Positions 8,284 to 9,226 of a stretch of 64,000 bases of DNA are shown here, in pieces. Where the stretch lies: assembly GCA_017541665.1 (NCBI GenBank), contig JAFXYP010000086.1, positions 29,784 to 93,783 of the forward strand, written 5' to 3'. The DNA is from Lentisphaeria bacterium. GTDB lineage: Bacteria > Verrucomicrobiota > Lentisphaeria > Victivallales > UBA1829. The notes under the pieces were generated by a model, which ran no database searches, had not been told where the DNA came from, and worked only from the letters and a program-made list of their open reading frames with translations. The position numbers and the translations under genes are program-made. Each line of letters starts with the position of its first letter. Position 1 is the first letter of the stretch.

Positions 8284-8507
8284 TCCTGTACACCATCGCG
8301 TGTTCTTTTCCGAAAAAACATTATCCTTTCGAAACTGAAATCTGAAATGATTTGCCGATGGGGAGTCCCCCCCTCGGGAACGACCGCATAGGGGGGGCGA
8401 TTTCCGATCCGCCGATTCAAATCGGCGTCATGGCAACAATTCAGACGACAATATCAATGGAAGTCTTTCTTTTCTTTTGGGTTCAGATGAGGGGGAAAGC
8501 GGATGGA

Positions 8508-8585
8508 TCAGCGGTTGTTGACAACTTTTTTGACAACTGCGACACCCGCGGCGGCAACAATAAAAGCACTCCAGGGGATAAACAT
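8508..8585 (-). CDS. micro-ORF A1: 25-aa hydrophobic peptide MFIPWSAFIVAAAGVAVVKKVVNNR
   Basis: Hand-translated. RBS GAAAGGAA lies 8 nt upstream of the ATG. One predicted TM helix with a basic tail. Paralogue of A2. Confidence 0.45.
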   Translation of the reverse strand: MFIPWSAFIVAAAGVAVVKKVVNNR

Positions 8586-8721
8586 GTTACGGTTTCCTTT
8601 CTGTTTGTTTGACTGGTTGCTGAGTTGAGGGAAATGAAGGTTTCATGGGGGGCATGCCCGCTCTTCCTGCGGACATGCCCGTATCATTCTGCTTTCATCA
8701 TCCTGTTTTTTCCTATGATAC

Positions 8722-8787
8722 TCAGTCTTCGAGCAAATCGATGATCGCCCGCAGAATATCAGCGACTTCACTGGAGATCAGGTCCAT
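8722..8787 (-). CDS. micro-ORF B2: 21-aa acidic amphipathic peptide MDLISSEVADILRAIIDLLED
   Basis: Hand-translated. RBS GAAAGGAAA lies 6 nt upstream. It starts 23 nt after the A2 stop. Confidence 0.35.
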   Translation of the reverse strand: MDLISSEVADILRAIIDLLED

Positions 8788-8810
8788 GAACTTTTTCCTT
8801 TCTTTTCGGG

Positions 8811-8888
8811 TCAGTCGTCAAGTATCTTCCTGACGGCGATTGCGGTCGAAACGAGGGCGGTGATGCCCTCCCATGCAATGAAGATCAT
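8811..8888 (-). CDS. micro-ORF A2: 25-aa hydrophobic peptide MIFIAWEGITALVSTAIAVRKILDD
   Basis: Hand-translated. RBS AAAGGAA lies 7 nt upstream. It aligns with A1 with a one-residue shift (FI.W ... V[KR]K[VI][VL][ND][ND]). Confidence 0.45.
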   Translation of the reverse strand: MIFIAWEGITALVSTAIAVRKILDD

Positions 8889-8986
8889 AGTGTGGTTCCT
8901 TTATGCTTGCGGTTCATTTGTGGGGTTAAGGGGTTTGTTTCGAAATCTGTTTCGCTCGTTCGGGAGCTTCACAGCCGTCATGGCGA

Positions 8987-9028
8987 TCAGTCGATCGTGA
9001 TGCCGCCGCCGTCGATTCGGATATCCAT
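8987..9028 (-). CDS. micro-ORF B3: 13-aa peptide MDIRIDGGGITID
   Basis: Hand-translated. It has the strongest SD in the region (GAAAGGAGGAAGCC-ATG). Very short, so the coding status is uncertain. Confidence 0.3.
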   Translation of the reverse strand: MDIRIDGGGITID

Positions 9029-9145
9029 GGCTTCCTCCTTTCCGCAGAAGGTTGATCGTGAGTGTCGGGACATACGGATTGCCGCTGCAGCCGGATTCGT
9101 CCCTCATCTGGCATTTGCCGTTGCGTGTTTCGTTCCTGCGACAAA

Positions 9146-9226
9146 TCAGCAGCAGAGGAAACTGTCACCGAAGGGGTCTTCGGGATCCGTGGGCATCGGG
9201 CGGGAATCGGGGAACGGGATAAACAT
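9146..9226 (-). CDS. micro-ORF A3: 26-aa Pro/Asp-rich peptide MFIPFPDSRPMPTDPEDPFGDSFLCC
   Basis: Hand-translated. RBS GAAAGGAAG lies 5 nt upstream. It shares the ACAGAAAGGAA...ATGTTTATCCC 5' end with A1 and then diverges, ending in Cys-Cys. Confidence 0.35.
   Translation of the reverse strand: MFIPFPDSRPMPTDPEDPFGDSFLCC

Follow-up and report, generated by a model that had tools for sequence, protein, structure and literature searches.

Is a gap of ~1.3 kb that gene callers leave empty devoid of genes, or is it occupied by genes too short to be called? The question is raised by a locus from a Lentisphaeria bacterium (assembly GCA_017541665.1, contig JAFXYP010000086.1), of which positions 29,784 to 93,783 of the forward strand were analyzed. 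This 64,000-nt stretch is referred to as the window. At 8284-9617 of the window, between the gene for tRNA-Ser(TGA) and h178, the gene for an uncharacterized protein, lies a gap of 1334 nt in which five very short open reading frames (ORFs) had been predicted on the minus strand. They had been described as parts of three tandem modules, in each of which a hydrophobic peptide (A) is followed by a short acidic peptide (B). As far as can be read from sequence, the comparison with homologous loci shows an array of independently initiated, protein-coding micro-genes which belong to five families, are under purifying selection, keep a fixed order, and are linked to h178. We consider it almost certain that these are real, co-expressed genes for micro-proteins. 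The array and its flanking genes are as follows.

9618-9705, minus strand: tRNA-Ser(TGA), identified by ARAGORN and Rfam; upstream edge of the gap left empty by gene callers
9146-9226, minus strand: A3, gene 1 of the array, a Pro-rich acidic peptide of 26 aa (MFIPFPDSRPMPTDPEDPFGDSFLCC; 'P' family), with the Shine-Dalgarno (SD) sequence ACAGAAAGGAAG 7 nt before its ATG
8987-9028, minus strand: B3, a peptide of 13 aa (MDIRIDGGGITID; 'D' family), with the SD sequence GGAAAGGAGGAAGCC
8811-8888, minus strand: A2, a hydrophobic single-helix peptide of 25 aa (MIFIAWEGITALVSTAIAVRKILDD), with the SD sequence CATAAAGGAAC
8722-8787, minus strand: B2, an acidic amphipathic helix of 21 aa (MDLISSEVADILRAIIDLLED), starting 23 nt past the stop codon of A2
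8508-8585, minus strand: A1, a hydrophobic single-helix peptide of 25 aa (MFIPWSAFIVAAAGVAVVKKVVNNR) with a net charge of +3, a basic C-terminal tail, and the SD sequence ACAGAAAGGAAAC
7747-8283, minus strand: h178, 178 aa, the short form of an uncharacterized family restricted to Lentisphaeria; anchor gene downstream of the array

Start signals and gene calls in the gap

The positions, strand, translations, and upstream motifs of A3, B3, A2, B2, and A1 were reproduced exactly, as were those of a remnant with an ATT start at 8458-8441. The motif AAAGGA occurs six times on the minus strand of the gap. In five of these six cases, an ATG stands 6-8 nt behind the motif and opens an ORF of 13 aa or more. 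The expected mean is 0.16, and none of 2000 dinucleotide-preserving shuffles reached five such combinations. The claim that each predicted ORF has an SD sequence of its own is thus borne out, with AAAGGA standing 6-8 nt ahead of the ATG in five of five. The sixth AAAGGA heads an additional upstream ORF (uORF) of 13 aa at 8321-8280, which had been missed by the original prediction.

Most members of the array share an initiation cassette, (C/T)nGAAAGGAAnnnnn(n)ATG(A/T)T(T/C)(A/T)T(T/C). A resemblance between the 5' ends of A1 and A3 had been pointed out before. It is real (an identical 12-mer plus ACAGAAAGGAA) and is part of this family-wide cassette. The G+C content at codon positions 1/2/3 follows a similar pattern in the micro-ORFs (0.57/0.41/0.69) and in neighboring genes (0.63/0.42/0.71 for h178), and that of the spacers is 0.50. 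The gap has a G+C content of ~0.47-0.55 compared to 0.62-0.67 farther along the window. No extra copies of the micro-peptides were found within the window.

The ORFs are indeed overlooked by gene callers: in the public gene calls on five near-identical contigs, the gap is empty except for an antisense ORF of 84 aa. This call corresponds to an ORF of 84-86 aa at 8352-8612 on the plus strand, opposite A1. It is without counterpart in related loci and is probably a false gene call.

All five micro-ORFs of the window (5/5) end with TGA. This is compatible with the higher G+C content of the window genome and is not evidence for recoding. Recoding of the stop codon, or read-through across the micro-ORFs, was considered and rejected because the orthologs in one related locus (L009, see below) end with TAA and because each ORF has its own SD sequence and ATG.

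Orthologous arrays in related Lentisphaeria

Relatives were found by h178 scans of genomes and metagenomes and by protein search, with homologs at 51-67% identity; related loci are numbered from L001. In the scan of reference genomes, the sole match was a Lentisphaeria metagenome-assembled genome (MAG) from yak rumen; the remaining contigs are of metagenomic origin, and their names point to work on the ruminant gut. In L001-L004 and L006 (99.4%), five contigs whose h178 is identical or 99% identical, the array is essentially invariant, and these loci give no information on it because they are near-identical to the window. Five other lineages were compared: L009, L010/11, L012-14, L015/16, and L017.

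Every short-form homolog of h178 (165-206 aa) is preceded by a gap which is empty in the gene calls and full of SD-led micro-ORFs. A3, B3, A2, B2, and A1 each have orthologs, found in the same relative order, and each of the five window peptides matches its own family at P<=0.001 in composition-preserving shuffles. In L012, the array consists of MFISTLWLILLVHVCPMINQLSVFF, MIFKPNRPFPFPLDPTIPQDPLGDVIRGLFF, MIITIDLGGILVATLLGL, MIINPFPEFPFPRNPFPRNPFPKFPPITR, and MIISIGTGGIVVITSLLAL, then MSLKNNRNKYRTNQLLNQYGKEERHGYQN, MDIRIDEGGITISW, MIISITWTGLIAAATTAAAIKKAFED, MELIPTEIADILREIIDLLED, and MVIFIPWAVVTLAGTAVAGAVKAIKDK, and ends at the h178 homolog; the order in L010 is the same. The L009 sequence opens inside a B2-type ORF (...EIADILRAIIDLLED), which is followed by an A1-type ORF and then the gene. 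In L015, L016, and L017, the gene is preceded by ORFs for a peptide of the Pro-rich kind, an acidic amphipathic one, or both.

A second complete array is located downstream of the h178 homolog in L010 (2640-3388) and L012 (3118-4202). A public call for a 148-aa gene in L012 (3820-4266) is an out-of-frame read through the second array. The copy number of the micro-ORFs differs between species, with up to about nineteen in the locus of one relative. Across the relatives, at least seven unrelated peptide families are found, which differ over their full length and have only the M-[IF]-[IF] start in common.

The proposed division into three A-then-B modules does not agree with these data. The orthologous arrays show five distinct families in fixed order, so that the array in the window is, on comparative evidence, one ordered set of distinct families present in single copy. 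A3 does not belong to the A family but to a Pro-rich acidic one (xPxPxDPx..DPxGD), and B3 (MDIRIDxGGITI) is not a paralog of B2. The description of A1 and A2 as paralogous hydrophobic single-helix peptides with charged tails stands, as does that of B2 as an acidic, partner-like peptide.

A3 matches the P-family peptides of L012, L010, and L015, which occupy the same first position (composition-preserving shuffle P=0.001). In this family, the motif xPxPxDP..DPxGD is followed by an amphipathic tail; the Cys-Cys end of A3 is not conserved. B3 (MDIRIDGGGITI) has orthologs of the form MDIRID[KE]GGITISW in L010 and L012, with two copies each (tblastn 92% over 12 aa; shuffle P<0.0004). Its nucleotide identity to the relatives is 0.73-0.78 in the ORF versus 0.46-0.50 in the spacers. 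The B3 family is related to a hydrophobic family of 18-19 aa, MIITI[DG]xGGI.. (P=0.004), which is absent from the window.

Orthologs of A2 (MI[IV][TS]ITWTGL..AAIKK.F.D) are found in L010 and L012 (shuffle P<0.0004; grand average of hydropathy [GRAVY] 1.12), and those of A1 (M.IFIPW.VV.LAGTAVA.AVKK.KD) in L009, L010, L012, and L013 (shuffle P<0.0004). A1 is always the final hydrophobic peptide ahead of the h178 homolog. Both peptides have a GRAVY of ~1.1, a Trp close to the N terminus, a stretch with many small residues, and a tail that carries charge. The hydrophobic moment of A1 is 0.05 (not amphipathic).

B2 is the most conserved member, with 76-93% identity to peptides in L009, L010, and L012. 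It has a net charge of -5 and a hydrophobic moment of 0.55, with hydrophobic residues at positions 4, 8, 11, 15, and 18, a 3-4 repeat. Between the window and L009, six synonymous changes are accompanied by a single non-synonymous one; the proportions of synonymous (pS) and non-synonymous (pN) differences are 0.56 and 0.029, respectively (P=0.001; pN/pS ~0.05). Against L010/L012, pS is 0.48-0.67 and pN 0.10-0.13, and over all B2 comparisons pN/pS is about 0.05-0.2.

An ATG start is common to all 45 micro-ORFs collected across six lineages, and in each of them an AGGA/GGAG core lies 4-9 nt ahead of it, in most cases at 7-8 nt. The nucleotide identity between the window and L012/L010 is 0.58-0.82 for the ORFs versus 0.32-0.50 for the spacers, the latter being the same as for shuffled sequence. 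With all five ORFs pooled, pN/pS is 0.36 for the window versus L012 (P=1e-7) and 0.47 for the window versus L010, values for which it has to be considered that protein-guided codon alignments bias pN downward. The outcome that would have spoken against genes had been named beforehand: homologous loci that lose the reading frames or start codons, or conservation that follows RNA instead of codons. This test was run and its outcome favors coding. Since five related lineages keep the same order, we regard the peptides as real small proteins from new families.

Three observations concern sequences at the margins of this set. The original prediction included a decayed B copy behind A1:

8441-8486, minus strand: possible decayed copy of the A2-to-B2 junction, consisting of the leader CTGAACCCAAAAGAAAAGAAAGACTTC and then ATT GAT ATT GTC GTC TGA

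The similarity between the leaders behind A2 and A1 is genuine (22/27 nt, 81%); in the copy behind A1, the SD sequence has decayed and ATT stands in place of ATG. Nothing corresponding to it was seen in the other species. With this one 27-nt match as its basis, interpretation as a decayed 'B1' is plausible. The relatives also have a basic ORF of 29 aa ('K') which overlaps the MDIRID start. No intact counterpart is found in the window, where the overlapping frame (8901-9107) is without SD sequence and without the stop codon of K, and a K search of the window gave no match. A protein search with the A ORF of L009, extended to 44 aa, gave no match either, as expected, since ORFs of 25 aa are not reported by gene callers.

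Putative regulatory elements and genomic context

The noncoding parts of the gap carry further features, all on the minus strand.

9391-9466, minus strand: copy 2 of an upstream element, 87% identical to copy 1 and 104 nt from it
9287-9362, minus strand: copy 1 of the upstream element, ~75 nt, direct repeat (TTTTTTCGGAAAAAA palindrome ... CGGAA ... AACCGCC.CCTAAT ... TGGAAGCGATGAT)
8650-8680, minus strand: G+C-rich hairpin of 12 bp between B2 and A1 (GGGCAUGUCCGC-AGGAAGA-GCGGGCAUGCCC), with no U tract behind it
8280-8321, minus strand: SD-led uORF coding for a basic peptide of 13 aa (MFFRKRTRDGVQE), its TGA overlapping the ATG of h178 (ATGA)

The upstream element is noncoding and precedes the first micro-ORF. 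Its blocks are, in order, the palindrome TTTTTTC-N-GAAAAAA, CGGAA, AACCGCC, CTAAT, and TGGAAGCGATGAT. It can be aligned to sequences in L013 (1840-2035, two copies) and, with one copy each, in L010 (283-395), L015 (110-235), and L016 (1-108), so that arrays of four lineages, that of the window included, are preceded by it. The palindrome recurs at 8306-8318, directly ahead of h178. As an RNA, the element has weak structure (a predicted 5-bp stem with two compensatory changes). We consider the element a probable promoter/operator of the array. An ORF of 27 aa across both repeats (9382-9299) was rejected as a gene: the counterpart of the same length in L013 shares only ~10/27 residues (by eye) while the nucleotide blocks are conserved, so that the region was judged to be a regulatory element.

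The hairpin region (8586-8724) folds with z = -2.67, and the hairpin sequence is not conserved in the relatives; two more hairpins are found behind A1. For the hairpin between B2 and A1, we infer a role in processing, stability, or termination. uORFs which end on or over the start of the h178 homolog are present in the window, L009 (20 aa), L010 (14 aa, ATGA), and L012 (18 aa, ATGA), and such an overlapping uORF likely couples translation into h178. Rfam detected only the tRNA at the gathering threshold, with chance-level matches at E<=1. No sigma-70-like promoter was found on the opposite (plus) strand of the array, a search for which the promoter rules of Lentisphaeria may differ.

The h178 family has 43 representatives among 1.84 billion proteins, and h178 has no match in Pfam, NCBIfam, or PADLOC. 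An AlphaFold2 model computed from an 11-sequence alignment is unusable (mean predicted local distance difference test score [pLDDT] 42.6). Short forms (165-206 aa) follow micro-ORF arrays, and long forms (283-305 aa) are found without micro-ORFs in TolQ-like/STAND clusters. Such a cluster, seen in L019 (246-7925) and L018 (100-5724), codes for a P-loop protein of 641 aa, a TolQ/ExbB-like protein, a 524-aa partner, the long form of h178, and a STAND nucleoside triphosphatase (NTPase) with NB-ARC/AAA_16 and TPR domains. It has no match in PADLOC and may be a new conflict system. In L007/L008, tandem repeats of ~57 nt (CGCTGGAGA.ATAAAGAGTG...) are found at ~1900-2400, upstream of a gene for a 482-aa partner.

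L010 joins both contexts. The array, the short h178 homolog, and the second array are followed by genes for an 80-aa transmembrane (TM) protein, a secreted 183-aa protein, and a VWA protein, and then for a 39-aa TM protein, an acidic 157-aa TM protein, and a homolog of the 641-aa protein. In L010 and L012-14, a gene for an HTH-WYL-WCX regulator is divergent from the array at a distance of ~350-440 nt, and the intergenic region contains conserved elements with inverted repeats. BrxR-family WYL proteins are repressors which bind inverted repeats and are co-located with defense islands (PMC9122601).

In the window, the WYL ortholog is encoded at 55834-56937 (minus strand, 78% identical) and has the same conserved promoter region, with no array beside it. 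Its position 46 kb from the array indicates that the locus has been rearranged in the lineage of the window. Directly downstream of this gene, at 54812-55780 (minus strand), two paralogous genes with strong SD sequences lie in a patch with a G+C content of 0.47; they code for proteins of 121-123 aa (MIEVTNRFELAKALVIDGEDE.. and MVEVKNRFEFAKAVVIDKEDV..) and have no Pfam match. At 53402-53467 (minus strand), an SD-led micro-ORF codes for a hydrophobic peptide of 21 aa, MIQLLGFILGGIAGFLLVFAR, ~130 nt upstream of a 209-aa ORF (52642-53271, minus strand). Past the array, the window codes for hypothetical proteins of 120 and 246 aa, a TM-TPR protein, and a GH43 enzyme.

The start cassette of A, a pattern obtained by back-translating B2, and a profile of h178 were used to scan viral contigs, and tblastn was run with B2 against plasmids and with the L009 A-type peptide against phages. 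None of these searches gave a match and no integrase signal was found; there is thus no evidence of a phage or plasmid origin. The 3' end of the tRNA-Ser gene is not duplicated elsewhere in the window, so that no att-type boundary was found.

Proposed function and its alternatives

The micro-proteins probably act at the membrane, as judged from their composition. We propose that the ordered array belongs to a stress or conflict island and encodes a co-expressed set in which membrane-acting peptides have acidic ones as partners, and give this proposal as a whole a probability of about one half. The peptides would be produced together as a single functional set. A1 and A2 would each place one helix in the cytoplasmic membrane, with AxxxG/AxxxA-like faces of small residues favoring packing, and would keep the basic tail on the cytoplasmic side. 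B2 would be a soluble or peripheral acidic amphipathic helix which oligomerizes and might associate with h178 or the basic tails. A3 would act as an acidic peptide rich in Pro, and B3, which is very short, would form a turn. The hydrophobic members may oligomerize in, perturb, or gate the membrane, with the acidic members as their stoichiometric partners or neutralizers. Expression would start from the palindrome-bearing upstream element, to which, in the relatives, a WYL-type repressor is predicted to bind, and the uORF with its ATGA overlap would carry translation on into h178. A stress or conflict context is suggested by the island-like, low-G+C, tRNA-flanked placement, by the duplication and turnover of arrays, and by the WYL, VWA, TolQ-like, and STAND neighbors in the relatives.

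Several points weigh against this proposal. No known family matches h178 or any of the peptides (for the latter, no Pfam or NCBIfam match at E<=1 and none in PADLOC), so that function is read from composition and neighborhood. Among h178, its partner, the TolQ-like and STAND proteins, and the neighbors in the window, PADLOC recognized no known defense protein. The conflict-island context is borrowed from the relatives because the WYL gene of the window is found 46 kb from the array and the VWA, TolQ-like, and STAND genes are absent from the 64 kb. A2 has a net negative charge, and the helices of A1 and A2 span only ~18 residues. The K ORF of the relatives has a pN which roughly equals its pS, and the downward bias on pN applies to the pooled values given above. 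In predicted mRNA folds, the accessibility of the SD sequences is unremarkable and uninformative (SD 8-mers of A2, B2, and A1 at the 67-80th percentile, only that of A3 low). Finally, the organism is known only from metagenomes, and transcription, translation, and membrane insertion are sequence-based predictions.

Two alternatives accept the peptides as genes and place their action elsewhere; we consider both unlikely. According to the first, the array encodes an exported, leaderless multi-peptide set, similar to phenol-soluble modulins (PSMs) or bacteriocins, which acts on other cells, biofilm, or surfaces. Tandem genes of ~20-30 codons with their own SD sequences and no signal peptide would fit this, as would the differences in copy number between species and the strongly amphipathic character of B2 and of the C-terminal halves of the P-family peptides. 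B2 (..ILRAIIDLLED) and the L015 peptide (..LIDIFTK) may resemble motifs of the PSM-alpha4/delta-toxin type. In the psm-alpha operon of Staphylococcus aureus, adjacent genes of ~20-26 codons encode one paralogous family of cationic or neutral peptides in a monoderm host, with a dedicated exporter and under agr control. The array resembles it in having adjacent tiny genes with their own ribosome-binding sites, no signal peptide, amphipathic or hydrophobic helices, and a long history of being missed by gene callers. It differs in comprising at least five unrelated families in fixed order, which are mostly acidic or hydrophobic and are encoded by a diderm of the Planctomycetes-Verrucomicrobia-Chlamydiae (PVC) group; an exporter was not found, and sequence homology could not be detected. 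Leaderless bacteriocins such as aureocin A70 are also comparable, as three or four co-transcribed leaderless peptides of ~30 aa act jointly. However, these are cationic, occur in Firmicutes, and have adjacent genes for immunity and an ABC transporter, which the array lacks. Export is further opposed by the absence of a dedicated ABC exporter or immunity gene beside the array, both in the window and in L010 and L012, by the mostly acidic or neutral character of the peptides, by the two membranes which would have to be crossed in a diderm host, and by the fact that each family is individually conserved rather than diversifying.

According to the second, the peptides serve as small subunits, with an accessory or assembly role, in a membrane machine made up of the TolQ/ExbB-like channel, the 39-, 80-, and 157-aa membrane proteins, the VWA protein, and the P-loop NTPases, of which the window would hold a reduced version. 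The fixed order and the apparent one-to-one, SD-driven expression would suit stoichiometric partners. Moreover, L010 links the arrays and h178 to small TM proteins, VWA, and the homolog of the 641-aa NTPase, which in L019 is followed by the TolQ-like protein, the 524-aa protein, the long form of h178, and STAND. Against this, the array is intact and under purifying selection in a window of 64 kb without the cluster genes, and duplication of arrays within a single locus is unusual for structural subunits.

It is quite unlikely that the array is a type I toxin-antitoxin array in which A1 and A2 are membrane toxins repressed by antisense small RNAs (sRNAs). In its favor, A1/A2 and the 18-19-aa family of the relatives are small, hydrophobic, and present as tandem multiples, in which they resemble toxins of the Ibs/Ldr/TisB type, and the position in the window is island-like. 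With the type I arrays of enterobacteria (ibs/sib, ldr/rdl, tisB/istR), the locus shares tandem hydrophobic membrane peptides of 18-35 aa at intergenic, island-like sites. Their antisense sRNA antitoxin and their structured, translationally inert toxin mRNA were, however, not detected here: no sigma-70-like promoter was detected on the opposite strand, no sRNA match is found in Rfam, the spacers are not conserved in a way that would allow for a promoter or terminator of an sRNA, and the SD sequences are canonical and, in the predicted folds, not notably sequestered. To our knowledge, type I systems do not feature hydrophilic, highly conserved, co-oriented partners such as B2, B3, and A3.

An interpretation as precursors of ribosomally synthesized and post-translationally modified peptides (RiPPs) is very improbable. 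It could appeal to several tandem ORFs of precursor size, to the Cys-Cys end of A3, and to a weak resemblance of the L019 STAND/TPR protein to the FxSxx-COOH TPR protein (44 bits compared to a cut-off of 300). Yet Pfam scans of the neighbors revealed no radical-SAM, YcaO, lanthionine-synthetase-like, or peptidase gene near any array, a shared leader with a variable core is missing, conservation within the P family does not extend to the Cys-Cys end, and hydrophobic TM-like members would be atypical.

No more credit can be given to regulatory leader peptides, where the act of translation rather than the product tunes h178. The ORFs are upstream of h178 and co-oriented with it, the last uORF (13 aa) overlaps its start codon, and Pro-rich peptides could stall ribosomes. 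This reading is contradicted by the conservation of the amino acids, with pN/pS well below 1, by the complete second arrays downstream of h178 in L010 and L012, and by the biophysical character which each family retains.

That the ORFs are not genes at all, but arose by chance or are left over from an upstream gene that decayed (the 360-524-aa partner of h178 in other relatives), can be dismissed with near certainty: B2 weakly resembles the C-terminal helix of the 482-aa partner of L007 (shuffle P=0.017), the possible B1 remnant is decayed, and K is without intact counterpart in the window, but tblastn of the partner proteins against the gap revealed no similarity, nor did that of B2 against the L005 partner, and all coding evidence (shuffles, orthologs, spacers, pN/pS) speaks against it. 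Pseudogene origin from the partner was rejected as the main explanation on the same grounds, with no similarity to the gap and a likeness of B2 that is marginal in L007 and absent in L005.

Having considered these alternatives, we retain membrane-acting peptides with acidic partners as our proposal and add a more specific version of it, which is speculative and on balance doubtful. PVC bacteria could possess a conflict or stress system not described before, with the array as its peptide arm. In this system, at least seven different co-translated, WYL-controlled micro-proteins of membrane-inserting, acidic amphipathic, Pro-rich, and basic types would form, or be released as, a membrane-active effector complex together with h178 and, in the full versions, the TolQ-like channel, VWA proteins, and STAND NTPases. 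BrxR/CapW islands (PMC9122601) are similar in that L010 and L012-14 have a divergent HTH-WYL-WCX gene, elements with inverted repeats, and STAND NTPases in the wider cluster. They differ in that no known defense protein was detected here and that the WYL ortholog of the window is 46 kb off; binding of the regulator to the elements is putative.

Small-protein genes and tandem peptide operons are already known (psm-alpha, type I toxins, leaderless bacteriocins); the peptide families described here are new. Small inner-membrane proteins of Escherichia coli and small-protein families from microbiomes (10.1101/494179; PMC11796252) are likewise shorter than 50 aa, often have a single TM helix, and are recognized by ribosome-binding site and conservation. 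These are mostly solitary genes, whereas here 5-10 different micro-genes are collinear and are duplicated within a locus. In a limited literature search, we found no description of such collinear batteries of micro-genes from multiple families.

Standard annotation does not see genes of 13-30 codons, a problem which has been discussed for genes of this size (PMC12607899, PMC8195425). Few of them have comparative support, and here a whole collinear battery has it, with order, start signals, and amino acid sequences kept across several uncultured Lentisphaeria from the ruminant gut. Seemingly "empty" gaps of a kilobase in MAGs can thus be dense with real genes. The families can be used for six-frame searches based on hidden Markov models (HMMs) and in databases for rumen metaproteomes. 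The short peptides, together with the candidate regulator and operator, provide a tractable set for probing a multi-component micro-protein system. If the more specific version of our proposal is true, the array would be a multi-micro-protein effector module without counterpart among known defense or toxin systems, and if the link to WYL, STAND, and TolQ-like proteins is functional, it would be an effector arm of a novel type in a bacterial conflict system.

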